Shown here: piece by piece, positions 1 through 16,588 of the stretch | How the letters are laid out: each line of letters starts with the position of its first letter | Position numbering within the stretch: position 1 is the stretch's first letter | IMG/VR virus record: IMGVR_UViG_3300049451_000021 | Coordinates: 1-16,588 of that record | From: a virus | Reading direction: 5' to 3' (one strand) | DNA length: 16,588 bases | Notes under the pieces: generated by a model | What the model saw: only the letters and a program-made list of their open reading frames with translations | The model's database searches: none | Told to the model about the DNA's origin: nothing | Made by a program: the position numbers and the translations under genes

Positions 1-127
1 CCGCTCGCCGAGCTGGCCCACGAGCGCGGGGACCCACACGAGATCCACGCCGTGCTCACCACCGTCCGTGCCGCCCTGCTCGACCTCGCCACGTCCATGC
101 AGGCCTCAAGGCTCAAGATCGAGAGAG
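1..127. repeat. Left copy of a 127-bp exact terminal duplication, identical to 16462..16588.
   Basis: I compared the two ends base by base and all 127 positions match. Confidence 0.97.
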
Positions 128-2124: not shown

Positions 2125-3171
2125 ATGGGGTTGCGTTCGGCGCTCAGGCTCGTGCAGGCGGCTCAGGAGCCTATGCCTATGCCGCGGGGCCCGACAGCGA
2201 TCCGCTCGCCCTGGGCGACGGGTGACCTGTCGCAGATCGTGTGGGCGGACCTGTTCGGTGCCGACGAGGCCTGGCCGCTGACCCGCGCGGCCGCCATCCA
2301 GGTCCCGGCCGTCGCCAGGGCCCGCAACCTGCTGGTCGGCGCGATCGCCCGCCAGCCGCTGCGCGCCGTCCAGGTCGACACCCCCGTCGACCCGCAGCCC
2401 GGATGGATCACCCGCACCGACGGCACGATGTCTCCCTGGCACCGGATGGCCTGGACTGTCGACGACGTGTTCTTCGCCGGCTGGTCGCTGTGGGCCTGCG
2501 AACGCGACGCCCGAAAGCGGATCCTGCGCGTCGAGCGCGTCCCCGCCGAGCTGTGGAGCTTCGACACCGACGGGTCGGTCCTGATCGATGGCAAGGACGA
2601 GGTCGACACCGAGACCGTCCTGCTGATCCCCGGACCCCACGAGGGCATCCTCACCAGCGCCCGAAAGACCATCCTCGGCGCGCGCCTGCAGGAGCTGATG
2701 TGGCAGCGCCGCGTCGCCGCACCGATCCCGGCGATGGAGATCCACCAGACCACCGACGAGCCCCTGGAGCCCGAGGAGATCGACGCGCTGCTCGAGGCGT
2801 GGATCACCGCCCGCACCGACCTGGACGGCGCCGTCGCCTACACGCCGTTCAACATCGAACTACGCCCCCACGGCACCGCGACCACCGACCTGCTGATCGA
2901 GGCCCGCAACGCCGTCGCCGTCGACATCGCCTCACACACCGGCCTGCCCGCGCAGCTGCTCAACGCCAGCCTGGCGACCGCGTCCCTGACGTACTCCACC
3001 GCCGAGACCGCCCAGGGCGAGCTGGCCACCAGCGCCGCCCTGTACGCCGACCCCGTCGCCGGCCGCCTGTCGATGGACGACGTCGTGCCCCGCGGGCAGC
3101 GCTGCGCGTTCGACCTGACCGACCTGACCACCACCCCGCCGGCGCCGCTCGGGCCTACCACGGAGGACTGA
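2125..3171 (+). CDS. Portal protein.
   Basis: The position between terminase and capsid gene, the size (about 330-348 aa) and the motif VPAVARARNLLVGAIARQPL are typical of HK97-type portals. The ATG at 2179 has a better Shine-Dalgarno (AGGAG at 2165..2169) and may be the true start. Confidence 0.8.
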   Translation: MGLRSALRLVQAAQEPMPMPRGPTAIRSPWATGDLSQIVWADLFGADEAWPLTRAAAIQVPAVARARNLLVGAIARQPLRAVQVDTPVDPQPGWITRTDGTMSPWHRMAWTVDDVFFAGWSLWACERDARKRILRVERVPAELWSFDTDGSVLIDGKDEVDTETVLLIPGPHEGILTSARKTILGARLQELMWQRRVAAPIPAMEIHQTTDEPLEPEEIDALLEAWITARTDLDGAVAYTPFNIELRPHGTATTDLLIEARNAVAVDIASHTGLPAQLLNASLATASLTYSTAETAQGELATSAALYADPVAGRLSMDDVVPRGQRCAFDLTDLTTTPPAPLGPTTED

Positions 3172-3175
3172 CAAA

Positions 3176-4837
3176 ATGACCGACCTACGCGCCGCCGGCG
3201 TCCTGCTCGCCGCCGACCCCGGCACCCGCAACCTGTCGTACCGGCTGCTGCCGTACGGGGAGGCGGGGCGGACCAGCCTCGGCGTCGTCACCGCATCGGC
3301 CGGGGTCGTCGAGCTGCCCGACGACCCCGGCGCCCTGGTCCTGAACCTCGAGCACGAGCGCCGCCGCCCGGTCGCCCGCGGCACCGCACTGGTCGAGTCC
3401 GACGCCGGCCTGGACGCCACCTTCGCCGTCGCCGAGACCACCGCCGGCAACGACCTGCTCGCCGAGGCCGCCGCCGGCCTGCGCACCGGGGCCAGCGTCG
3501 AGCTGGCCGACGTCGTCATCCGCGCCGGCCGCCTGGTCTCCGCGCGGCTGGTCGGCGCGGCCGCGGTCGTCGACTCCGCGTTCCCCTCCGCACAGCTCGC
3601 CGCCTCCGACGTCGGCGACGACGACCAGGCCGACGACGCCGACGACGACGCCGACACCGACGAAGAACAGCAGGTCGGCGACGCTGTGACCCCCGACGAC
3701 AACGACGACGACAGCACCGACGACAACGACACAGGAGCCGACATGACCACGACCACCACCACCGCGGCCGCGGCAACGTTGGCCGCCACCCGCGCGCCGG
3801 CCGGACTGCCGACCCCGCGCCCCGCCCGCCCTGAGCCCGGGTTCCGCGAGATCGTCCGGCTGCTCGCCAACGCCGGCCGCACCCAGGGCGAGGGCCGGCT
3901 ATTCGCCACCCTCGAGCAGGCCTCCCCCGGCTCCACGCAGCTGTTCGCTGCGCTGTCCGACATCACCCCCGCCTCGACGTCGGTCAACGACGTGATGCAG
4001 ATCCCGCAGTGGCTGGGGGAGGTCTGGGACGGCCGCACCTTCCAGCGCCGCTACATCCCGCTGATCACCTCGGCGCCGCTGACCGCCATGCAGGTGAAGG
4101 GCTGGAAGTGGGTCGTCAAGCCCGAGGTCGCCCCGTACGCCGGCAACAAGGGCCCGGTCCCCAGCAACGCGGCGACCACCGAGCCGTACGTCCTGGACGC
4201 GCAGCGCATCGCCGGCGCCCACGACATCGACCGGATCTTCCGCGACTTCAACGTCGAGGAGTTCTGGAGCTCGTACTGGGCGGCGATGGCTGAGTCCTAC
4301 GCCAAGCAGTCCGACGCCGTCGTGGGCACCGTGCTGTTGGACAACTCCCCGTACGTCGCGCCGGGCGCCGTCCCGACCGGGGTCAGCAAGGGCGCCAGCT
4401 ACATCGTCGACGGCGCCCTGGCGATCATCGACACCGCCATCCCCACGTTCGCGATCGTGTCCAAGGACCTCTACCGGGACCTGCTGCTGACCCGCAATGA
4501 GGACGTCCTGGCCTACCTCAACCTGGCCCTCGGCCTGGAGGACGGCACCATCGCCAGTTTCAGCGTCGTGCCCGGCGCCGCGGGTTTCCCCGCCGACACC
4601 GTCATCGTCGGCGCCAAGCCGGCCGCGACCGTGTACGAGCTGCCCGGCACGCCCCTTCGCGTGGAGGCGCTCAACATCGCCAACGGAGGCGTTGACACCG
4701 GACTGTTCGGTTATCTCGCCGCCGGCTTCAACGACGACGGTGGCCTGGCCCTGGTCTCCGCCACCCCGCCGGTCGCCGCCGACGAGGAGCAGGGCACCGC
4801 GACCGGACGGCGCGGCCGCCGTACGGCGAAGGCCTGA
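3176..4837 (+). CDS. Prohead protease-like domain fused to an HK97-fold major capsid protein through an acidic linker.
   Basis: GGAGGA lies 8 nt upstream of the ATG. The N-terminal ~140 aa carry LNLEHERRRPVARG...GLRTGASVEL, which matches the S78/HK97 protease His and Ser motifs. A D/T-rich linker spans about 3600..3780. The C-terminal ~340 aa look like a capsid protein. No separate protease, scaffold or capsid gene is present. Confidence 0.75.
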   Translation: MTDLRAAGVLLAADPGTRNLSYRLLPYGEAGRTSLGVVTASAGVVELPDDPGALVLNLEHERRRPVARGTALVESDAGLDATFAVAETTAGNDLLAEAAAGLRTGASVELADVVIRAGRLVSARLVGAAAVVDSAFPSAQLAASDVGDDDQADDADDDADTDEEQQVGDAVTPDDNDDDSTDDNDTGADMTTTTTTAAAATLAATRAPAGLPTPRPARPEPGFREIVRLLANAGRTQGEGRLFATLEQASPGSTQLFAALSDITPASTSVNDVMQIPQWLGEVWDGRTFQRRYIPLITSAPLTAMQVKGWKWVVKPEVAPYAGNKGPVPSNAATTEPYVLDAQRIAGAHDIDRIFRDFNVEEFWSSYWAAMAESYAKQSDAVVGTVLLDNSPYVAPGAVPTGVSKGASYIVDGALAIIDTAIPTFAIVSKDLYRDLLLTRNEDVLAYLNLALGLEDGTIASFSVVPGAAGFPADTVIVGAKPAATVYELPGTPLRVEALNIANGGVDTGLFGYLAAGFNDDGGLALVSATPPVAADEEQGTATGRRGRRTAKA

Positions 4838-5547: not shown

Positions 5548-6033
5548 ATGGTCACAGTCGCCGTCGCCCCGTTCGTCCTCAAGAACGCCACGTTCCTCGT
5601 GGCGGCGGACAACTACGAGGCGCACGTCTCGCAGGTCGAGTTCAACCCCTCCACCTCCCAGGTCCAGTGGCACGGCCTGAGCCCGTCGGCGTCGTTCACG
5701 GACTCCAGCAGCCCGTCCTGGGCCGCGACGCTGTCCTACGCCCAGGACTGGGTCACCCCGAACAGCCTTTCCAAGTACCTGTTCGACCACCAGGGCCAGA
5801 CGGTCGTGTGCAAGTTCACCACCAACCCCGGCGCCGGGGTCTGGACCGCGAGCCTGATCATCGCCGCCGGGTCGATCGGCGGCACGGTCAGCAACTACGC
5901 CGTCGCCACCGTGACCCTCGGCATCTCCGCTGCCCCCACGTACGTCCCGCCCGCGCTCGCCGACCCGGCCGCCGACGACAGCGCCGACGACGTCGCCGAC
6001 AGGACCGACGACGCCGACGTGTCGGTGACGTGA
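5548..6033 (+). CDS. Major tail (tube) protein.
   Basis: AAGGAG at 5535..5540 precedes the ATG at 5548. The 161-aa protein is beta-rich and sits upstream of the tape measure region. It has an acidic C-terminal tail. Confidence 0.6.
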   Translation: MVTVAVAPFVLKNATFLVAADNYEAHVSQVEFNPSTSQVQWHGLSPSASFTDSSSPSWAATLSYAQDWVTPNSLSKYLFDHQGQTVVCKFTTNPGAGVWTASLIIAAGSIGGTVSNYAVATVTLGISAAPTYVPPALADPAADDSADDVADRTDDADVSVT

Positions 6034-6546: not shown

Positions 6547-8130
6547 GTGGCGATCAAGATCCCGTTCATCGCCGACGTCTCCAAGTTCCTCTCCGGCACC
6601 AGAGACCTCGAGGAGTCCCTCGACGACGTCGCCGACAGCCTCGACGACATCTCCACCGCCGGCGCCCAGGTGGAGGCCCGGGTAGGCGACAACCTCGACG
6701 ACACCGCGAAGGCCGCCGACGCATCTGCGGAGAAGATCTCCAAGAGCTTCAAGACGGCGTTCCACGAGGTCGAGGCGGCCGGGCGGACCAGCAGCCGCAA
6801 GGTCAGGGACGAGGTCGACGACGTCGGGCACAAGGGGTCCGCGACCCTGCACGAGTTCTCCGCCGAGGCCAAGCAGAACGTCGCGGAGTCCCTGTCCAGC
6901 TTCACCGGCTCCGCGGAGTCCGCGGTCGACGCCGTCCAGTCGACGTTCGGTGGGCTGGTCTCCGCGCTCGGTCCCGCCGGCCTGGTCGGCGCGGCCGCGA
7001 TCGCCGCCGGGATCGGCCTGGCCCGCGGCCTGTTCGCCAAGAGTCAGGAGGCCGCCGAGCAGTTCCGTGAGCGGGTCCTGAACATCTTCGACGAGCTGCG
7101 CGAGTCCGGGGACATCACACCCGAGTTCAAGATGGACACCCTCGCCGGGATCATCTCCGACGCGAAGGCGCTGCAGGCCGCGTTCGACGTCGACAACGTC
7201 GACGCCTTCAACGACCTGCTGCACCAGACCGGCCTGAACGTCGGGCAGCTGCAGACCTACTTCTCCGGCCTGACCGGCGACGCCGGCGAGCTCGGCGACG
7301 CGCAGCTGCTGCTGACCCAGCAGCTGACCTACCTGCGCGGCATCCTCACCGACCCCTCCGCGTCCCTGGCGCAGCAGGGCCAGGTCCGCGTCCAGGTCGA
7401 CGCGATCAGCACGCTGCGCGATGCCCTGGCCGACCAGGGCAACGCCTACGGCGACGCCCGCGCCCAGGCCGACCTGCTCAACGAGCTGATGCCGAAGGCC
7501 GCCGACGCCACCGACGACGCCACCGACGCCACCGACGACAACACCGAGGCGCTCGCCTCGAACAACGAGCAGCTGAGGATCGCCGCCGGCCTGCGCGGCG
7601 ACGCCGTCGCCTCAGAGCTGGACATGAAGGATGCCCTGGACGCGGTCAGCAAGGCCCGCAAGGACAACGGCCTGAGCCTGTCCAAGAACACCGACGCCGG
7701 GCGGGACAACCTGCGATCGATCCAGCAGGCCATGAAGGGCATCCAGGAGTACGGCGACGCCCTGGTCGACAACGGCGCCAGCTCCGACGTCGCGACCCGC
7801 AAGATGCGCACCCAGGAGGACGTCCTGGTCAACAGGGTCCAGAAGGCGTTCCACGTCACCCGCGGTGAGGCCGAGCACTACATCGACACCCTCGGCGGGA
7901 TCCCTCCGGCGAAGGACACCAAGGTCACCGTCGACGACCACGGCACCGCGAAGACGACGAAGGACAAGGTCGACGAGGCCGCGAAGGACCGGCAGACCAC
8001 GGTCTCGGTCGCCCCCGACATGAGCGGATTCAACGAGACCGTCAACGACTACCTGTCGGGGCGTTCGTTCAAGGTCAACCTGGAGCCGCGGATCTCGCAG
8101 CCGAAGCTCGGAAAGCCGATACCGCAATGA
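6547..8130 (+). CDS. Tape measure protein.
   Basis: This 527-aa protein is the longest tail gene. It is helix-rich with a hydrophobic Gly/Ala segment (GGLVSALGPAGLVGAAAIAAGIGLA). It lies between the tail tube gene and the tip genes. Confidence 0.8.
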   Translation: MAIKIPFIADVSKFLSGTRDLEESLDDVADSLDDISTAGAQVEARVGDNLDDTAKAADASAEKISKSFKTAFHEVEAAGRTSSRKVRDEVDDVGHKGSATLHEFSAEAKQNVAESLSSFTGSAESAVDAVQSTFGGLVSALGPAGLVGAAAIAAGIGLARGLFAKSQEAAEQFRERVLNIFDELRESGDITPEFKMDTLAGIISDAKALQAAFDVDNVDAFNDLLHQTGLNVGQLQTYFSGLTGDAGELGDAQLLLTQQLTYLRGILTDPSASLAQQGQVRVQVDAISTLRDALADQGNAYGDARAQADLLNELMPKAADATDDATDATDDNTEALASNNEQLRIAAGLRGDAVASELDMKDALDAVSKARKDNGLSLSKNTDAGRDNLRSIQQAMKGIQEYGDALVDNGASSDVATRKMRTQEDVLVNRVQKAFHVTRGEAEHYIDTLGGIPPAKDTKVTVDDHGTAKTTKDKVDEAAKDRQTTVSVAPDMSGFNETVNDYLSGRSFKVNLEPRISQPKLGKPIPQ

Positions 8131-9422: not shown

Positions 9423-10603
9423 GCAACACCGGCGCCTACGACCCGTCCCTGGAGGACCTGATCCGAGGTCCGCTGCCGCAGCTGTGGCAGGTCCTGGTCT
9501 ACGACGCCGCCGGCTCCCAGATCCCCCTGCAGGTCCAGTCGTGCTCCCTGACGTTCGACGAGGCCTGGTGGCCCTACGTCCAGGGCAGCGTGACCGCCCG
9601 GATCTCCGACGATCAGGCCACCCTCGACCGGCTCGACCCGCGCCAGAAGGTCCGCGTCGAGGTCCAGGCCGGCTACCGGCTACCCGACAACAGCAAGGAC
9701 ATCCACCTGCTCGCCCAGTGCTGGCTGGTGTCGCGCTCAGTCGACCGCCCCGCGAACCTGCTCGAGCTGAGCATCCAGGGCGGGGAGTACATCGCCGGGC
9801 GCGTCGTGGAGTTCCTCAACGTCGTCGCCATCCCGAACAAAGCCGCCTGGAGCTCCACCACCGCCGCGCGCGCCGCGGTCAACGACTGCCTCACCGCGGC
9901 CGGGCAGGTCGCCTCCAGCGCGGACTGGGACTACGCCGCCGCCAGTCAGGAGACCGGCTGGTCCGGTGACGGCACCGACCGGTACGGGGTGCAGCTGCCC
10001 GCCCAGGGAGCCTCCCCGCTCGACGTCGCCGCCGACATCGCCGCCCGGGTCGGTGCCTGGCTGTACTGCGACGGCGCCGGGGTCTGGCACATGCCCGTCA
10101 AGCCCTCCACCGCCTCGGCGGTCACCGCGCACCAGCTCAAGGTCGGCAACAACGGCACGGTCATCGACTCCGCGACCGTCCTGGAACGCGGCGACGACTG
10201 GGGAAACGCCGTGCTGGAGGAGATCACCTACGCCAACGCCTCCGGCGCCGAGGTGAAGGTCTGGGGCCGCGCCCGCCTGGCCAGCGGGCCGTTCGCCGTC
10301 GCCACGATCGGCGCCGTGGTGGTCAAGGTCGACCGGGCGATCCGCACCTACGTCTCCCAGGCGCGCGCCGACCAGATGGCCGGCGCCCTGCTCGGCAGCG
10401 TCCTGACCCTGGGCCGGTCCCTCAGCCTCGACGCGGTCGCCGCCTACTGGCTGCGCCCCACGCAGACCGTCACCGTGCAGCTGCCCCTCGGTGGCCAGGA
10501 GCGGGTCCTGGTCTCGGCTGTGCGGTTCAACCTGGACGACGGGTCGATGGCCATCAGGACCCGGCTCCCGGAGAACGTCTCCGGGATCACGATCGGAGGC
10601 TAG
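9419..10603 (+). CDS. Minor tail protein in the tail-tip (Tal) position.
   Basis: This 394-aa ORF is coupled to the upstream gene by a GTGTGA overlap and follows the Dit-position gene. Confidence 0.55.
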   Translation: MSNTGAYDPSLEDLIRGPLPQLWQVLVYDAAGSQIPLQVQSCSLTFDEAWWPYVQGSVTARISDDQATLDRLDPRQKVRVEVQAGYRLPDNSKDIHLLAQCWLVSRSVDRPANLLELSIQGGEYIAGRVVEFLNVVAIPNKAAWSSTTAARAAVNDCLTAAGQVASSADWDYAAASQETGWSGDGTDRYGVQLPAQGASPLDVAADIAARVGAWLYCDGAGVWHMPVKPSTASAVTAHQLKVGNNGTVIDSATVLERGDDWGNAVLEEITYANASGAEVKVWGRARLASGPFAVATIGAVVVKVDRAIRTYVSQARADQMAGALLGSVLTLGRSLSLDAVAAYWLRPTQTVTVQLPLGGQERVLVSAVRFNLDDGSMAIRTRLPENVSGITIGG

Positions 10604-11171: not shown

Positions 11172-11741
11172 ATGGTCAACACCGTGCACGGCATCCCCTA
11201 CCCGACAGCCGCCGACGACACCGACATCCCCGGCGACATCCGCCTGCTCGCCGAGGCGTTCGACCGGCACCTGCCGGTCCTCGTGCGCCCCACCCTGCCC
11301 GAGACGCACCCGCTGCCGGTCGGGCAGGGCAACGCCGACCCTGAGCTGTTCATCGACCTGAGCCCGGGCACGTACCGCGTGGAGTGCGTCACGACCTACC
11401 TGGTCTCCGACATCACGGCCGACGTCACCCAGTCGTGGATCGACACGCCGTCCGGGTCGATCACCCTGGGCTCCCGGTTCGTCCTCGGCCCCCAGCTGGG
11501 CCTGGTGAACACCGCCGCCGTCGCCCTGGTCGACAGGCCCCTGGCCGCGCTGTCCACCGCCCAGGACTACGGCGCGATGCCCACCTCGAGCAACTACATC
11601 CGCGAGTCGCTGATGGTCACCACCACCGCCGGCGGCCGGCTGAGCCTGTTCTTCAACGTCCTGCGCCCAGCGGAGACCCTCCACACGGTGACCCGCGGCG
11701 TCGCGTCGTACCTGATCGCACGCCGTGAGGAAGCCCGGTGA
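11172..11741 (+). CDS. Minor tail / putative receptor-binding protein, paralog B.
   Basis: GAGGAG lies before the ATG at 11172. The 189-aa protein starts MVNTVHGIPYP. It shares PGTYRVE, ITLGSRFVLG and S.YIRE blocks with 10606..11160. Confidence 0.55.
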   Translation: MVNTVHGIPYPTAADDTDIPGDIRLLAEAFDRHLPVLVRPTLPETHPLPVGQGNADPELFIDLSPGTYRVECVTTYLVSDITADVTQSWIDTPSGSITLGSRFVLGPQLGLVNTAAVALVDRPLAALSTAQDYGAMPTSSNYIRESLMVTTTAGGRLSLFFNVLRPAETLHTVTRGVASYLIARREEAR

Positions 11742-12697
11742 GCCTGCCCCTGGTCTGGATGGCCGACGTGCTGCGCGCCGCCGGCTGCACGGTCGTCGAG
11801 GAGCCCGGATGGAAGACCCGCGGCCGGCCCCGCCCGTTCGCGCCGATCGGCATCATGTTCCACCACGACGCCTCACCGAAGGGCGAGACGTCCAACGGCG
11901 CCGACGTCATCGTCAACGGCCGCCCCGGCCTGGAGGGCCCGCTGGGCAATCTGTGGCTGTCCTACGACGGCGCCTGGCACTGCTGCGCGGCCGGCTCGGC
12001 GAACCACGCCGGGACCGGCGACGGCTCGTGGGGCGACATCGACGACGGTAACCACGACACGATCGGCATCGAGACCGACCACACCTCCAACGAGGACTGG
12101 ACCACCGGGCAGCGCTCCGAGGGCCTGCGCGGCACCGACGCCCTCCGCCGGCACATGGGCATGACCGACGGACAGGTGGGACGCCGGGTCCTGGCCCACA
12201 AGGAGTGGGCGCCCTCACGCAAGATCGACCCTGACCCGATGGACATGGCCGTCGCCCGGGCCAACCTCATCGCCTACGACCCAGCAGCGGAGGACGGATA
12301 CGTGGACCAGATCAGGCGCTCCAACTCCCAGGCCCAGACCCTCGCCCCGAGCAGCTGGCGCAACGTGCGGATCGGCGCCGAGGACGACGCCTCCGGCCCC
12401 CAGTTCGGCATCATCTCCGGCCCCGCCCACTGGTCGCTGCACGCGACGCTGACCACCGAGGGCGGCATCCCCGCAGGGAAATCGCTGATGCTGCGCGCGG
12501 TGAACACCAAGGGCGACGCCGACAACGTCGTCAATGGGCACCCCATCGTCCAGTTCGGTCCCACCGACACCGGCCCCCAGCACTTCGGGTACTCGATGCA
12601 GGGGTGGACCGACGAGGGCCAGACGCTGCGCGTGCAGGCCAACGCCGACGCCGAGGTCACCCTGACCAAGACCGAGACCCGCGCCTCGATCTGGTGA
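11738..12697 (+). CDS. Endolysin: N-acetylmuramoyl-L-alanine amidase (Amidase_2/PGRP type) with an unknown beta-rich C-terminal domain.
   Basis: The motifs MFHHDAS, GIETDH and HKEWAPSRKIDP match the Amidase_2 zinc and catalytic pattern. It is the last gene of the rightward string. Confidence 0.8.
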   Translation: MSLPLVWMADVLRAAGCTVVEEPGWKTRGRPRPFAPIGIMFHHDASPKGETSNGADVIVNGRPGLEGPLGNLWLSYDGAWHCCAAGSANHAGTGDGSWGDIDDGNHDTIGIETDHTSNEDWTTGQRSEGLRGTDALRRHMGMTDGQVGRRVLAHKEWAPSRKIDPDPMDMAVARANLIAYDPAAEDGYVDQIRRSNSQAQTLAPSSWRNVRIGAEDDASGPQFGIISGPAHWSLHATLTTEGGIPAGKSLMLRAVNTKGDADNVVNGHPIVQFGPTDTGPQHFGYSMQGWTDEGQTLRVQANADAEVTLTKTETRASIW

Positions 12698-13120
12698 TCA
12701 GATCCCGGCGAGGCCCCGGACCACCCGCGCCGGGACCATCAGCCGGTCGCGTGAGCCCCACGGCACCGCGCCGATCTCCTCGGCGTGCCGGCGCACGGCC
12801 GCCTCCGGGATGCCGAGCAGCCGCGACGCCTGCTCGAGGGTGAGCAGCGCGGGCAGCACGGCGAGCGCACCGGCGAGTGTGTCGGCGACGTCGTCGCGAC
12901 GTGTCGGTGTCGCGCTGTTGACGGCGACGTCGTCGCGACGTGTCGGCGACACGTCGGTCCCCGGCATCGGCGTGATCCGCATCGCATCGGCGGGGATCTG
13001 CCAGCCGGTCGACGTCTTCACCGCACCGGGGATCTCACCCGCCTTGCACCAGCGCTGAACCGTACGGGCATCGACGCGGTGCAGCGTGGCGAACTGGTCC
13101 GGGGTCACGTAGGCCTCCAT
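12698..13120 (-). CDS. DNA-binding protein with two excisionase-family (HTH_17/MerR-like) motifs; candidate excisionase or regulator.
   Basis: The N-terminal motif is VTPDQFATLHRVDARTVQRWCKAGEIPGAVK..GWQI. The C-terminal motif is LTLEQASRLLGIPEAAVRRHAEE. The linker between them carries a duplicated PTRRDDVA. Confidence 0.6.
   Translation of the reverse strand: MEAYVTPDQFATLHRVDARTVQRWCKAGEIPGAVKTSTGWQIPADAMRITPMPGTDVSPTRRDDVAVNSATPTRRDDVADTLAGALAVLPALLTLEQASRLLGIPEAAVRRHAEEIGAVPWGSRDRLMVPARVVRGLAGI
12883..12946. repeat. Two perfect 25-bp direct repeats, CGGCGACGTCGTCGCGACGTGTCGG, at 12883..12907 and 12922..12946.
   Basis: I read these directly from the sequence. The period is 39 bp and in frame, and each copy contains the palindromes CGACGTCG and GTCGCGAC. 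Confidence 0.9.
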
Positions 13121-13375: not shown

Positions 13376-14260
13376 TCAGTGCTTTGTCGGGCGATACGGA
13401 CTGAAGTGGTCATGCACCCGCGTCATCGCCGTCCGCAGTTCGTCGTCGTCGACGTCGAGATAGACCTGCGTGACCGCCAGCGAGCTATGCCCGAGCGAGC
13501 GCTGCACGACGCGGATGTTGGTGCCCTTGCGCAGCATCGTCGTGGCGAAGGCGTGACGCAGCTGGTGCATCGTCGCGCCGTCCAGGAGCCGGCCCACGAC
13601 CCTGCCGACCCAGCGCGGCGACAGGTGCCCGTCGCAGTGGCCGGGGAACACATAGCCGGCGGCGTCGCGTAGCTGCTCGGCCAGGTCGACGTCGATCGGG
13701 ATGGAGCGCGGCCGCCCGCCCTTGCCATGCACGATCAGGCTGTGCCCGACGAGGTCGTCCACGACGTCGCGGCTGTGCACCTGGGCGACCTCGGCGCGGC
13801 GCAGTCCGTGCTCGCACGCGAGCACGAGCATGAGCTGCTCGCGGGTGTTGGCATGTGCCAACGCCGCGCTGTAGACCGCCAGCGCCGCCGGCCTGGGCAC
13901 GCCCCGCGACGGACGCACGACCGGCAGGCCCAGCGCGGGGTCGACGTCGACCCGGCCTGAACCGTGGGCCCACCTGTAGAAGCCGACCAGCGCCGCCCGG
14001 ACTGCACGCCGGCGCTCGCGCGACCACCGCGCCCGCAGCCGGCCCAGGTCCTCGTCCCACACCTCGAGGCCCATCCACTCCAGCAGCTGCGCCGTCGTGA
14101 CGTCGCCCGGACCACCGGTGACCTCACGAGACAGCTGCGCCAGGACCTGCCGCCGGCTGCCGATCGTCGAGCTCGCGCGCCCCGCCGCACGCAGCGCCGT
14201 CAGCCACTCCTCGATCCACTCCGACCACACCGGTGAGACCGGCCACTTGCTCAGCGCCAT
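13376..14260 (-). CDS. int: Tyrosine recombinase / phage integrase.
   Basis: The catalytic pattern is present: HGLRRAEV (Arg), HQLRHAFAT (His-x-x-Arg), LGHSS (His) and TQVYLDV (Tyr). GGAGGG lies 7 nt upstream of the ATG at 14260. The open frame continues upstream to 14392 but overlaps the preceding gene. Confidence 0.9.
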   Translation of the reverse strand: MALSKWPVSPVWSEWIEEWLTALRAAGRASSTIGSRRQVLAQLSREVTGGPGDVTTAQLLEWMGLEVWDEDLGRLRARWSRERRRAVRAALVGFYRWAHGSGRVDVDPALGLPVVRPSRGVPRPAALAVYSAALAHANTREQLMLVLACEHGLRRAEVAQVHSRDVVDDLVGHSLIVHGKGGRPRSIPIDVDLAEQLRDAAGYVFPGHCDGHLSPRWVGRVVGRLLDGATMHQLRHAFATTMLRKGTNIRVVQRSLGHSSLAVTQVYLDVDDDELRTAMTRVHDHFSPYRPTKH

Positions 14261-14310
14261 CAGGACACCCTCCGCCGGGCCCGGGACCGGGCCAGTTGCC
14301 GTGTCACCGT

Positions 14311-14628
14311 TCAGCCGACGATTGCCGCGACATCGTCGAGCATCAGCGAGACCTGGCCGCCGAGGTAGGTCCGTGTGTCCTCGAGGTGCCACTCGACCGA
14401 CGTCGACGACGCACCCGGGTGGTGCTCGGCAGGGACGTAGGACTCGATCACCCAGACCTGGGACTCCAGCGTGATGTGAATCTTCACCAGCGCCTCACCG
14501 GACGCCGAGCGCACCACCCACTCCGAGGCGTCGTGGTGGCCACGATTCAGGATGTCGACGTGCGTCAGCCCCGCATCCAGCAGCGCCGCCCACGTGATGT
14601 ACCCGTCACGGCGCTCGGCGTCGGTCAC
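14311..14628 (-). CDS. Hypothetical protein (105 aa).
   Basis: Its GTG start overlaps the stop of the upstream gene (GTGA). GC3 is high. I recognise no motif. Confidence 0.55.
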   Translation of the reverse strand: MTDAERRDGYITWAALLDAGLTHVDILNRGHHDASEWVVRSASGEALVKIHITLESQVWVIESYVPAEHHPGASSTSVEWHLEDTRTYLGGQVSLMLDDVAAIVG

Positions 14629-15161
14629 GCCTCTTCCCCGGCTTCAATGGCAGCGATGAACGCGGTCCGGTTGTGGCTGTCGAGGGACCACAGCGTGCGG
14701 CTCAGCTCACCCCGTGCCAGCGATGCGACCAACGCCAGGATCGCCTGCTCCCCGGAGGAGTAGACACCGGCGGCGTAGCGCCACGACCCGGGACCAGTCG
14801 CCTCAGCCACGTCATAGTCGATGTAGGCATACGTCTCGCCGGCGTCCATCTCGAGCGTGACCAGGCCACACTGCACCGAGCGCGCTACCTGGCCGGTGGC
14901 AATCAGCAGTTCGGTCGCGGCTACAGCCGATCGCGATCCACTAGCCCAGGTCCGCAACAGGGTCGCCACCTGATTCGCGGTCATGGCAGCGAGGTCCTGG
15001 TCGTTCCTGCGAAGCACGCCGCCGTAGCAGGCGTTGCAGATCACGTCGACCTGGTCTTCGACCGTGTCGTCGTTGAGGTACTTGGCCACCTCGAGGGCGC
15101 CGACGTAGCGGCTGCACTCGACGCAGTGCCGGCTTTCGTCGCCGAGATCCGCGGCGCTCAC
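14625..15161 (-). CDS. Hypothetical protein (178 aa) with an N-terminal CxxC...CxxC pair.
   Basis: Its GTG start overlaps the repressor stop codon (GTGA at 15161..15158). The two pairs are CVEC and CNAC, zinc-ribbon-like. I recognise no other motif. Confidence 0.55.
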   Translation of the reverse strand: MSAADLGDESRHCVECSRYVGALEVAKYLNDDTVEDQVDVICNACYGGVLRRNDQDLAAMTANQVATLLRTWASGSRSAVAATELLIATGQVARSVQCGLVTLEMDAGETYAYIDYDVAEATGPGSWRYAAGVYSSGEQAILALVASLARGELSRTLWSLDSHNRTAFIAAIEAGEEA

Positions 15162-15478
15162 GCTGCAGCCTCGAGCACTGACCAGAAGGTTAGGGGTTCG
15201 AGTCCCTTCGGGCGCACAGTCTCTTCCTCGCCGAACAACCAGCCCACCGAGACGCCGAGCGCGTCCGCCAGGGCGACCAGGTCGCCAGCGAACCAGGCAC
15301 TTTCACCCCTGAGCCGACGCGACAGGGTCGACTGAGTGATGCCCAGCGTCGTCGCCAGCTCGCGCTGCTGAATCTTGCGGCGCCACAGCACGTGGTGCAC
15401 CCGCTGGCCGATGAGCACGTCAATCTCTGCGCGTTGCACGGTCGCTCCCATGCCCTGAATCTTCCGACGCCGAGGCAT
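15158..15478 (-). CDS. XRE/Cro-CI-family helix-turn-helix repressor.
   Basis: IGQRVHHVLWRRKIQQRELATTLGITQSTLSRRLRGES is a classic XRE HTH. The gene is divergent from a Cro/Xis-like gene. If the leftward promoter is as I propose, the ATG at 15451 is a possible leaderless start. Confidence 0.8.
   Translation of the reverse strand: MPRRRKIQGMGATVQRAEIDVLIGQRVHHVLWRRKIQQRELATTLGITQSTLSRRLRGESAWFAGDLVALADALGVSVGWLFGEEETVRPKGLEPLTFWSVLEAAA
15185..15216 (+). other. Putative attP core: a mimic of a tRNA 3' end (variable loop, T-arm, acceptor 3' strand and discriminator).
   Basis: The sequence reads AGGTT-AGGGG-TTCGAGT-CCCTT-CGGGCGC-A. No complementary 5' acceptor strand (GCGCCCG) lies upstream, so this is a fragment and not a tRNA gene. 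The antisense frames give the tell-tale peptides GLEPLT and RDSNP. Confidence 0.6.
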
Positions 15479-15549
15479 CGTGCGTCAACACGCCGCGCCA
15501 TACGTCGATGATTGACACTGATTGCACCAGGTGCATAGCGTCACGCCAC
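15452..15549. promoter_or_regulatory. Divergent back-to-back promoter and operator region (the genetic switch).
   Basis: Rightward: TTGACA (15512..15517), an 18-bp spacer, then TAGCGT (15536..15541), with an ATG at 15550 (leaderless). Leftward: TTGACG (reverse complement of 15483..15488) and GAAGAT/AAGATT (reverse complement of about 15458..15464). A perfect 13-bp palindrome, TGCACCAGGTGCA (15523..15535), sits in the rightward spacer. Confidence 0.5.
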
Positions 15550-15762
15550 ATGACGACTCGTGAGAATCAACGCTCTACACCCGAATCGGACGACTGGCTA
15601 TCCGTCACGGCCGCGGCCGGCCTGCTCGCCGTCAGCAGACGGACCATCTACCGCTACATCGAGCTGGGCCACCTGCCCAAGCGCCAGCTGCCCGGCAACC
15701 GCGTCCGCCTGGCCCGCGCTGACGTGCTCGCGCTGCTCAAGGAGTCGGAGCGCTCAGCATGA
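15550..15762 (+). CDS. Excisionase-family HTH (HTH_17) DNA-binding protein in the Cro position.
   Basis: WLSVTAAAGLLAVSRRTIYRYIELGHLPKRQLPGNRVRLARADVLALL matches the excisionase/MerR-like HTH pattern. It is the first gene of the rightward string. The alternative upstream ATG at 15508 lies before the predicted -35. Confidence 0.7.
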   Translation: MTTRENQRSTPESDDWLSVTAAAGLLAVSRRTIYRYIELGHLPKRQLPGNRVRLARADVLALLKESERSA

Positions 15763-16352
15763 CCGCCGCCCGGTCGTCCGTCGTGCCGATCGAGGTAGCG
15801 CGTCGACGGCGTATCCCCTACGCCCAGGTGCGGGCCCACATCGCCCGCGACACCAACCTGTCCGTCATGGCCCGGCACCTCTACACGCTGCTGTGCGTCT
15901 ACGCGAACGCCGACGGTGAGGCCAGGCCCTCGGGTACGACCTTGCAGGGCGAGCTGGGCTGCTCTGAGAACACCCGCAAACGTGCCGTCAACGAGCTGGT
16001 GAAGGCCGGCTATCTCGAGGTGCAGGCACGCACGGACGAGCGTGGCCGGCAGACGGCGAACCTCTACATCCTGCTCGATGACTTCGGCATCGTTGACGAT
16101 GCGGCAGCGCGGATACCGGCACGTCGCGGCACCAGTAGGGGGGCCACCCATGGCCCCCCCCAAGGGGGGGCCACCAGTGGCCCCCTGGAGGGGGCCACCC
16201 ATGGCCCCGGGAGGGGGTCACCCATGGCCCCCCCTCAGGGGGGGCCACCCACGACCCCCCCGTATGAACAACCAGGTAGAACAGCGCGCGCGCAAGACCT
16301 CCGCGCGCTGCGTGAGGCAGTCAGCAAGAAGGGGTCGGCCGATGGACCGTGA
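15759..16352 (+). CDS. Winged-helix DNA-binding protein, replication-initiator-like, with a Gly/Pro-rich repeat linker.
   Basis: It overlaps the upstream gene by ATGA. LSVMARHLYTLLCVYANADGEARPSGTTLQGELGCSENTRKRAVNELVKAGYLE is a typical phage/plasmid wHTH (HTH_36-like). The C-terminal half is encoded by the repeat array at 16138..16261. Confidence 0.6.
   Translation: MTAARSSVVPIEVARRRRIPYAQVRAHIARDTNLSVMARHLYTLLCVYANADGEARPSGTTLQGELGCSENTRKRAVNELVKAGYLEVQARTDERGRQTANLYILLDDFGIVDDAAARIPARRGTSRGATHGPPQGGATSGPLEGATHGPGRGSPMAPPQGGPPTTPPYEQPGRTARAQDLRALREAVSKKGSADGP
16138..16261. repeat. Array of five tandem units of about 23-27 bp, each a G/C-rich dyad of the form GGGGCCA-CCCA-TGGCCCC. Candidate replication-origin iterons.
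   Basis: Dyads: 16138..16159 (9-bp arms), 16166..16185 (8-bp arms, loop CCAG), 16191..16208 (7-bp arms), 16213..16232 (one mismatch) and 16238..16261 (degenerate). Confidence 0.85.
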
Positions 16353-16588
16353 GCGGATCGAGCGCGAATTCCTGGCCCTCGAGCAGTGGATGGACGAGAC
16401 CAACCCGCCCCTGCTGGCCGTCGTCGTCCTGGCCAACGGTGCGGGTCACGCGTTCACGTACCCGCTCGCCGAGCTGGCCCACGAGCGCGGGGACCCACAC
16501 GAGATCCACGCCGTGCTCACCACCGTCCGTGCCGCCCTGCTCGACCTCGCCACGTCCATGCAGGCCTCAAGGCTCAAGATCGAGAGAG
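16342..16588 (+). CDS. Hypothetical protein: 5' part of the junction-spanning ORF, which continues at 128..186 of the unique sequence.
   Basis: The ATG at 16342 overlaps the stop of the initiator-like gene by 11 nt. The frame stays open to the window end and is in phase with 1..186. Confidence 0.6.
   Translation, partial: MDRERIEREFLALEQWMDETNPPLLAVVVLANGAGHAFTYPLAELAHERGDPHEIHAVLTTVRAALLDLATSMQASRLKIER
16462..16588. repeat. Right copy of the 127-bp exact terminal duplication, identical to 1..127.
   Basis: I compared the two ends base by base and all 127 positions match. Confidence 0.97.

Follow-up and report, generated by a model that had tools for sequence, protein, structure and literature searches.

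In phage lambda the origin of replication consists of iterons and an AT-rich tract and is found midway through gene O; the O protein binds as dimers, and extra iterons lengthen the protein (PMC7466680). In plasmid pSK41 the N-terminal domain of Rep is a winged helix similar to the N-terminal domain of DnaD; it binds four Rep boxes, which occupy the central part of rep and encode a linker (PMC5703833). Very few actinobacteriophages have an annotated origin, and the same is true of uncultivated phages in general. Here we describe an array of five GC-rich dyad units within an initiator-like gene of a virus, IMG/VR record IMGVR_UViG_3300049451_000021; the whole stretch of 16,588 nucleotides that was analysed is called the window. 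The gene encodes a winged-helix protein of 197 amino acids, and the units follow the segment that codes for the winged helix. Comparison with relatives indicates that the array is constrained as DNA, not as peptide. We consider it probable that the five units are iterons bound by the encoded protein and that, with the low-GC stretch that flanks them, they form the vegetative replication origin of the phage.

The layout of this locus is like that of lambda O/ori, and of lambdoid and Stx phages such as P27 and 933W, in which the initiator gene contains the origin, with four to six iterons and an AT-rich tract behind them. There are also clear differences from lambda. The DNA-binding domain of the window protein is HTH_36, and the protein has no match to Pfam Phage_rep_O; it lacks a large C-terminal domain; the window has no P-like or DnaC-like loader gene; and its units are unrelated in sequence to lambda iterons and extremely GC-rich, with an AT-rich element of only about 24 bp. 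With pSK41, a RepA_N replicon of Firmicutes, the window shares a winged helix, in-gene boxes and a linker, whereas its protein has no match to Pfam RepA_N (PF06970). pSK41 Rep carries an essential DnaG-binding C-terminal domain, which has no large counterpart in the window protein, and pSK41 is a plasmid of low-GC hosts with A+T-rich boxes, in contrast to the GC-rich array described here.

The Pfam domain itself leads to other replicons. It is shared by the chimeric initiator of pPR9 and by the Rep proteins of the Paracoccus plasmids pAES7, pMARC3 and pMOS2. pPR9 is a pSK41 relative with a pfam13730 N-terminal module, and its mini-replicon replicates; its segment of about 500 bp, holding the N-terminal domain and origin, differs from that of pSK41 and resembles a phage replication protein (PMC5703833). 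Paracoccus HTH_36 plasmids have iteron-like repeats near rep, and their predicted origins vary in structure (PMC3832669). The repeats of pPR9 and the Paracoccus plasmids nevertheless differ from those of the window, and the GGGNCACCCATGNCCC dyad is absent from these reports. Linear plasmids of Streptomyces are, like the window, actinobacterial replicons; as cited in PMC2974207, their iterons adjoin rep1, which encodes a DNA-binding protein, and rep1 is accompanied by rep2, which encodes a helicase, whereas no helicase partner was detected in the window. A phage with matching gene order is BlueFeather, with a genome of 16.3 kb and the same succession of two helix-turn-helix (HTH) genes, a winged-helix protein, a small open reading frame (ORF) and HNH. 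Its repeat sequence differs, its large terminase is only 34% identical to that of the window, and we found no origin annotation for it. Taken with these systems, the array is in our reading a further case of the known in-gene iteron origin, in a widespread and undescribed family.

The dyad array and its conservation

Tandem Repeats Finder places the array at 16138-16261, with a period of 24-27, 4.9 copies and a score of 108. We searched the window for the 16-mer GGGNCACCCATGNCCC, allowing up to two mismatches, and found exactly five sites, all on the plus strand, starting at 16141, 16168, 16192, 16215 and 16242 and thus spaced 27, 24, 23 and 27 bp apart. Dinucleotide-preserving shuffles gave a mean of 0.45 sites, and none of 200 reached five. 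The units have the form GGGNCA-CCCA-TGNCCC; they are 16-18 bp long, and each is an inverted repeat with arms of 7-9 bp around a 4-nt centre. Because the centre CCCA is asymmetric, the unit is no true palindrome and each unit has an orientation. Unit 2 can also be parsed as GGGGCCAC-CA-GTGGCCCC, and its CCAG spacer is shared by the loci L004, L009 and L031. The composition of the array is distinctive as well: 10 of the 11 GGGGG positions in the window, and all three of its CCATGG sites, fall within it.

An earlier, sequence-only reading of this DNA had described five units, the first three perfect, the fourth with one mismatch and the fifth degenerate, and the repeat finder, the pattern search and measurement of the arms show this description to be essentially right (Table 1). 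The Gly/Pro-rich linker that it read from the array agrees with the translation. Its statement that the array codes for the C-terminal half of the protein holds for the linker but goes too far in extent, since the array corresponds to residues 127-168 of 197, ahead of a short tail. Within the window the units are read in two frames, 1-3 in one and 4-5 in the other.

A protein search returned nine relatives with 44-99% identity, and we compared the DNA of seven of them (44-83% protein identity) with the window as reference. All seven share the local order of an HTH_17 gene, the initiator-like gene and a small overlapping ORF, with HNH next where the contig is long enough. Every relative compared has four or five units at the equivalent position; P0009 has four units and 178 amino acids, as against five units and 197-202 amino acids in most others. 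As in the window, the first units of each relative's gene are read in one frame (GATHGP/GVTHDP) and the last two in another (GSPMAP/GSPMTP).

Three variants of the arms occur: GGGGCCA...TGGCCCC in the window and L026, GGGTCCA...TGGACCC in L031, and GGGGTCA...TGACCCC in five relatives, including L003 at 44% identity. The two arms thus vary jointly, as GCC/GGC, TCC/GGA and GTC/GAC, and in a wider set of loci a further variant, GTGTCA/TGACAC, also keeps the dyad. Positions 3 and 16 are complementary in 42 of 47 distinct units, a figure that none of 2000 shuffles reached.

The strongest indication of what is being conserved comes from the codon positions. Across the seven relatives, identity at third positions is 0.83-0.95 in the array and 0.50-0.67 in the winged-helix domain; in that domain the six close relatives have identities of 0.75-0.93 at first and second positions. 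In the array, amino-acid identity, at 0.60-0.76, is below nucleotide identity, at 0.80-0.87. Where residues are identical, the codons are identical for 19-29 of 21-31 residues in the array and for about half to two thirds of those in the domain. The sequence-only reading had named conservation of the peptide without the dyads as evidence against itself; in the seven relatives the reverse was found, with synonymous change suppressed in the array.

This constraint extends beyond the last unit. Directly after the array comes the least GC-rich stretch of the gene, as had been claimed from the sequence: the 24-mers starting at 16260-16263 have 46% GC, the minimum for the gene, and only 0.5% of 24-mers in the window, whose mean is 71%, are as low or lower. 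Over this stretch L003 has a third-position identity to the window of 0.62, and the six close relatives reach 0.85-1.0; in these six, the conservation of DNA over peptide seen in the array continues through the next 13 codons. In L003 ATGAAC, TAGAA and GCGCGC are kept after the array although the peptide there is unrelated. The low-GC stretch is followed at once by an inverted repeat with an alternating run, and the GCGCGC core of this repeat is invariant in the eight-sequence DNA alignment, even where the peptide differs.

The unit also occurs in about 40 other phage- or plasmid-like contigs, with GC contents of 40-72%. Exact-pattern scans yielded 13 viral contigs and 28 metagenome contigs, and the unit was found as well in a contig of a Pirellulaceae metagenome-assembled genome and in a metagenome-derived complete phage genome, MW202738.1. 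These arrays hold two to six units, and their spacings cluster at 22-24, 31-34 and 44-47 bp, approximately multiples of 11 bp. The motif occurs on both strands; some copies are coding, in any of four reading frames, and others are not. Its readings elsewhere include GVTHDP, GSPMTP, GVMGDP and GSWVTP, and the array is non-coding in L002, L011, L013, L049 and L059.

The 28 metagenome loci were picked by the DNA motif alone. A local hidden Markov model (HMM) of the winged helix, built from ten loci of the earlier scans, detected the domain in 24 of them, ending a median of 30 nt (range 13-312) before the array. In 21 of these 24 the array lies in the same open frame as the domain; the motif has the same orientation as the gene in 17 and the opposite orientation in 7. 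Two further loci, L040 and L045, have at the same place what we read as a more divergent HTH-like segment, for which Pfam and PHROGs gave no match. With few exceptions the array separates the domain from the lowest-GC or AT-rich stretch, which is very marked in L064.

The surroundings of several of these arrays support a role in replication. In L006 an initiator of 437 amino acids is followed by a DnaC-like and then a DnaB-like gene, and in L004 the initiator is followed by a DnaC-like gene. L002 has a winged-helix gene, two units and then a gene for a superfamily 2 (SF2) helicase; L011 has a ParA gene nearby; and L013 has two inverted DnaA boxes, TGTGGACAA and TTATCCACA, amid units in both orientations.

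Two observations on these loci stand apart. In L013 (IMGVR_UViG_2547132424_000001, 5640-5860) the stop codon of the winged-helix gene falls inside the first dyad (GGGTCACTGATGACCC), and the intergenic array combines full dyads in both orientations with three half-site repeats (AATGTCTGGGGGTCAT). Across the wider set, the centre CCCA is nearly invariant, with 45-46 of 47 distinct units agreeing at each position, yet units point both ways with respect to the gene and the AT-rich side; a symmetric dimer is not expected to read an asymmetric centre.

Other searches defined the limits of the motif's distribution. A two-unit pattern scan of a genome collection returned mostly chance single-unit matches in unrelated genes, L019 being its sole true array, and a match from the first viral scan, L001, was a chance occurrence inside a Gly-rich tail gene. 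Scanning viral contigs with a protein pattern from the family alignment gave no confirmed relative. A tblastn search of the motif-bearing initiators against isolated phages matched one metagenome-derived genome and no cultured phage, and when four core strings of the motif were looked for in full-text literature, no paper was found. The recurrence of one 16-bp dyad with a winged-helix partner across very different phage and plasmid genomes thus appears to be undescribed.

The encoded protein and its wider family

The 197-residue protein matches Pfam HTH_36 (PF13730) over residues 32-86, with 38.4 bits against a curated cut-off of 25 (E=1.1e-9). Its best PHROG match is PHROG 270, annotated as a replication initiation protein, through residues 16-163 (E=1.4e-15). 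The 21 PHROG matches include the replication initiators PHROG 428 and 391 and DnaD-like and O-like families, the O-like ones matching weakly through the winged helix (7e-7 to 4e-4); none of the 21 is a terminase family. A sequence search of the PDB with the protein found nothing. An AlphaFold2 model, built from ten sequences, has a winged helix at residues 20-108 with a predicted local distance difference test score (pLDDT) of about 90, values below 50 for residues 110-170, and then a short C-terminal helix; the array-coded residues are accordingly predicted by the model to be disordered. Foldseek returned generic winged-helix matches, with many transcription regulators among the best; they include the RepA_N structures 4pql, 4pt7 and 5kbj (E about 1e-3 to 5e-3) and DnaD 2v79, with weak values of about 1e-3 to 1e-2 overall. 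Because these matches are generic and their E-values weak, no specific structural family can be claimed. The membership of the protein is only that of HTH_36 and PHROG 270.

Close relatives with GCC arms have N at residue 71, those with TCC arms have T and those with GTC arms have K; the predicted recognition helix starts around this residue. This pairing of a residue with the dyad variant is suggestive only, because there are few independent changes.

An exhaustive profile-free search found 1,532 cluster representatives related to the window protein. Outside the window's own clade the signature peptides occur in only one of the 150 best. The closest other family members have different short peptide repeats at the same post-domain position, for example GNTHEPPQGGNTDDPP and GTQTYPPRGGTQTYP. 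The single 16-bp dyad behind an HTH_36 winged helix recurs in dozens of unrelated contigs; closer relatives of the window protein carry other repeats at that place.

When the window protein was compared with phages and plasmids by tblastn, only distant N-terminal matches in Firmicutes elements were found, and none of the four checked has the motif. Three of the four have other repeats at the same position; in the remaining one, L034, Tandem Repeats Finder found no array. The three, Clostridium phage phiCD24-1 (L035), a C. tetani plasmid (L032) and Sporosarcina phage Lietuvens (L033), each have repeats of their own after the winged helix, followed by AT-rich DNA. Examples are CCATGTCCG/CGGACATGG and TTTACC-ACAT-GGTAAA. 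The repeats lie inside the gene in L032 and L035 and after the stop codon in L033.

BlueFeather (L065, MT024867.1) offers a case in a cultured phage. Its gp21, at 14404-15069, is annotated only as a helix-turn-helix protein, and what follows the winged helix in the gene is a DnaA box without mismatches (TGTGGATAA), three copies of a dyad (AGCCAGAATCCGGCT) and a palindrome, TAACCCCTTAAGGGGTTA. These elements are likely to be an unannotated origin in an isolated, culturable phage, and BlueFeather would make a convenient experimental model. Corgi gp21 has no comparable array. Across these comparisons, it seems to be general in the family that the DNA-binding domain is closely followed by repeats. 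That lineages carry different repeat sequences would be expected if they are iterons by which replicon specificity is set.

The origin reading and its alternatives

These data suggest how replication of the phage could begin. After induction, the early rightward operon, consisting of the Xis/Cro-like HTH gene and then the initiator gene, would be transcribed through the array. Dimers of the 197-residue protein would then bind each unit; the half-site centres, GGGNCA and TGNCCC, are 10 bp apart and so lie on the same face of the helix. With all five units occupied, a nucleoprotein complex would form and would destabilise the neighbouring 46% GC segment, at which the host replisome would be recruited. 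The disordered linker peptide is presumed to tolerate the sequence imposed on it by the DNA sites. Binding by the protein, the dimer stoichiometry, unwinding and origin activity are all steps that we infer from the analysis as a whole.

The proposal of a lambda-style origin inside an initiator gene, made in the sequence-only reading, gains support from the comparative evidence: conservation at the DNA level, joint changes in the arms, independence of frame and strand, the HTH_36 and PHROG 270 matches, and the replication-gene context of relatives. Its observation that polymerase and helicase genes are missing also stands: Pfam and PHROG detected no polymerase, helicase, loader or primase gene in the window.

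Several points weigh against an origin bound by this protein. We found no DnaA box near the array in the window, and GC skew is uninformative on the position of the origin because nearly all genes run one way. The low-GC segment extends over only about 24 bp, and in the 120 nt downstream of the array no 30-mer falls below 57% GC. The protein is without the large C-terminal domain of its longer relatives; as the downstream ORF also has no loader match, recruitment of the host replisome is left unexplained. The joint variation of the arms would fit a hairpin or cruciform too. Finally, the scans used a fixed consensus, and the uniformity of the motif is therefore partly by construction; the domain association, the frame independence and the gene context are not products of that procedure.

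The same winged-helix protein might instead bind the units to control transcription, by autoregulation, as a roadblock in its own operon or as a switch to late genes. We regard this as unlikely, though it has some appeal: the fold is a generic one with many regulators among its best structural matches, the protein has neither a large C-terminal domain nor a recognisable loader partner, and the operon that contains the array is closely followed by the HNH and terminase genes. The PHROG matches, however, are to replication initiators and not to regulators, and homologous modules contain DnaC-like and DnaB-like genes, a ParA gene or DnaA boxes. An AT-rich stretch consistently follows the array, and no promoter-like or terminator-like site was found in 14500-16588. 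Since lambda O and plasmid initiators also autoregulate, an operator role could add to an origin role.

Sites for packaging can likewise lie within a gene, as the pac sites in the small terminase genes of P22 (gene 3) and SPP1 (gene 1) do. A small terminase subunit was identified nowhere in the window, and the distance from the initiator-like gene to the HNH and large terminase genes downstream of it is about 400 bp; the initiator-like protein could on these grounds be a small-terminase-like subunit with a pac site in its own gene. We think this very improbable. The protein has no small-terminase family match, weak matches of that kind belonging to two HTH_17 proteins, and the motif-bearing relatives lie in replication modules far from packaging genes. 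An HNH gene beside a terminase gene points to cos-type packaging; HNH adjoins the large terminase gene here, and a cos site would then be expected in the gap at 422-605.

It is just as improbable that the conserved feature is a nucleic-acid structure, whether hairpins in mRNA, hairpins or cruciforms in single strands, or a G-quadruplex or i-motif. The 171-nt region does fold at -110 kcal/mol (z = -4.7 against shuffles), pairing is preserved by changes in both arms, and runs of G5-G7 and C4-C8 are present. What is kept, however, is base identity and not pairing alone, since an identical GGGTCACCCATGACCC recurs from 40% to 72% GC and the unpaired centre is nearly invariant. The motif stands on either strand relative to transcription and also in intergenic DNA that looks non-transcribed, and Rfam has no family match. 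The sequence-only reading had offered quadruplex, i-motif or cruciform formation as a possible function, and the comparison did not support this: in low-GC relatives (40-45% GC) the runs shrink to three or four bases, 15-30 nt apart, a poor fit to quadruplexes, with the dyad core identical, and in the window the runs are 17-22 nt apart, each facing a complementary run.

Hairpin extrusion could still be a secondary feature of an origin. In a fuller version of that idea the dyads would have a dual role, the duplex binding initiator dimers and, after opening, the very stable GC hairpins showing the host primosome or primase, by their structure, where to enter. This would explain how replication starts without a helicase, loader or primase gene and without a C-terminal recruitment domain, but we hold it to be a rather unlikely elaboration.

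That the array is a mere tandem duplication coding for a Gly/Pro-rich linker, neutral or selected as protein, we find scarcely credible: the peptide is repetitive, of low complexity and predicted to be disordered, but the same DNA is read in two frames within the gene, other contigs use four frames or the opposite strand, the peptide is less conserved than the DNA with synonymous sites frozen, and the motif also occurs outside genes.

If the origin reading is right, the locus is a concrete, testable candidate for the origin of a temperate phage that is minimal in size, at about 16.5 kb, and would rely wholly on host replication proteins. There is, in our estimate, a roughly even chance that GGGTCACCCATGACCC and the winged-helix domain are one recognition pair conserved across phages and plasmids of hosts with 40% to 72% GC, in which case origins would be predictable from sequence alone. 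Binding of the units by the protein, if true, would give a sequence rule for finding origins in a large initiator family (about 1,500 cluster representatives), natural specificity variants of initiator and iteron (residue 71 as N, T or K with GCC, TCC or GTC arms), and a compact replicon cassette for vectors of high-GC Gram-positive bacteria. The array also provides a clear case in which a function at the DNA level appears to shape a linker sequence, in several reading frames.

The surrounding phage genome

The terminal 127 nt are identical at the two ends of the window (1-127 = 16462-16588, an exact duplication). The contig must therefore be circular or terminally redundant, with a true genome of about 16,461 bp. 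The features of the window are collected in Table 1.

Table 1. Coordinates of the dyad units, neighbouring elements and genes in the window
Feature	Coordinates	Strand	Sequence or remark
Initiator-like gene	15759..16352	+	197 amino acids
Winged-helix domain coding segment	15813..16076	+	domain coordinates from local HMM
Predicted recognition helix	residues 70-83		ENTRKRAVNELVKA; AlphaFold2 secondary structure
Candidate iteron 1	16137..16160	+	GGGGGGCCA-CCCA-TGGCCCCCC; 9-bp perfect arms; read as GATHGP
Candidate iteron 2	16165..16186	+	GGGGGCCA-CCAG-TGGCCCCC; 8-bp perfect arms; variant spacer; read as GATSGP
Candidate iteron 3	16190..16209	+	GGGGGCCA-CCCA-TGGCCCCG; 7-bp perfect arms; read as GATHGP
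Candidate iteron 4	16213..16232	+	GGGGGTCA-CCCA-TGGCCCCC; 8-bp arms, one mismatch (GTC vs GGC); other frame, GSPMAP
Candidate iteron 5	16238..16261	+	GGGGGCCA-CCCA-CGACCCCC; two arm mismatches (CGACCC); read as GPPTTP
Lowest-GC stretch of gene, candidate DNA-unwinding element	16260..16286	+	CGTATGAACAACCAGGTAGAACAG
Inverted repeat with alternating run	16282..16310	+	CAGCGCGCG-N11-CGCGCGCTG; run GCGCGCGC; directly after low-GC stretch
Downstream ORF	16342..16588, crossing circular junction to ~186	+	101 amino acids; no family match; no PHROG match
HNH endonuclease	68-421
Large terminase	606-2066
Portal	2125-3171
Capsid	3176-4837
Tail genes			
Endolysin	11738-12697
HTH_17 protein	12698-13120	-
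Tyrosine integrase	13376-14392	-
HTH_3 repressor	15158-15478	-
Xis/Cro-like HTH_17 gene	15508-15762		divergent from repressor

Judged by these genes, the window is that of a very small temperate siphovirus-like phage, with a GC content of 71%. Its host is likely to be actinobacterial: the isolated phages nearest to its large terminase are Arthrobacter phages of 15-16 kb (among them BlueFeather, Corgi and Yavru), at 32-36% identity. Between the ATG of the downstream ORF and the end of the initiator gene there is an overlap of 11 nt; the product of this ORF is a possible partner protein.

Megablast of the whole window against isolated phages gave a single match of 47 nt, at 15171-15217; the matching DNA, with 92% identity, belongs to Mycobacterium phage Cracklewink and lies in its immunity repressor gene. 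At the same place ARAGORN called an 86-nt 'tRNA-Cys' at 15132-15217 (+), inside the 3' end of the repressor gene; the C-terminus of the repressor reads ...KGLEPLTFWSVLEAAA. The segment 15132-15217 looks like an attP core, a tRNA 3' half, inside the repressor gene. Integration-dependent immunity, with attP inside the repressor gene, is a layout of some mycobacteriophages.

The gap at 422-605 between the HNH and large terminase genes, 185 bp without an ORF, has at 581 a 24-mer of 42% GC, among the lowest in the window. This gap is likely to be the cos region.

A second in-gene repeat lies at 12879-12957, in the HTH_17 gene beside the integrase gene. It has GGCGACGTCGTCGCGACGTGTCGG twice, 40 bp apart, together with related 11-nt units (Tandem Repeats Finder score 74). 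The syntenic HTH_17 gene of L003 has a short tandem repeat too, at 7551-7597. The integrase, an excision factor or the HTH_17 protein itself may bind at the repeats in these HTH_17 genes. L003, a relative of 14.4 kb, has in addition a perfect 27-bp tandem duplication (2.1 copies) at 9806-9862, within its Xis/Cro-like HTH_17 gene.

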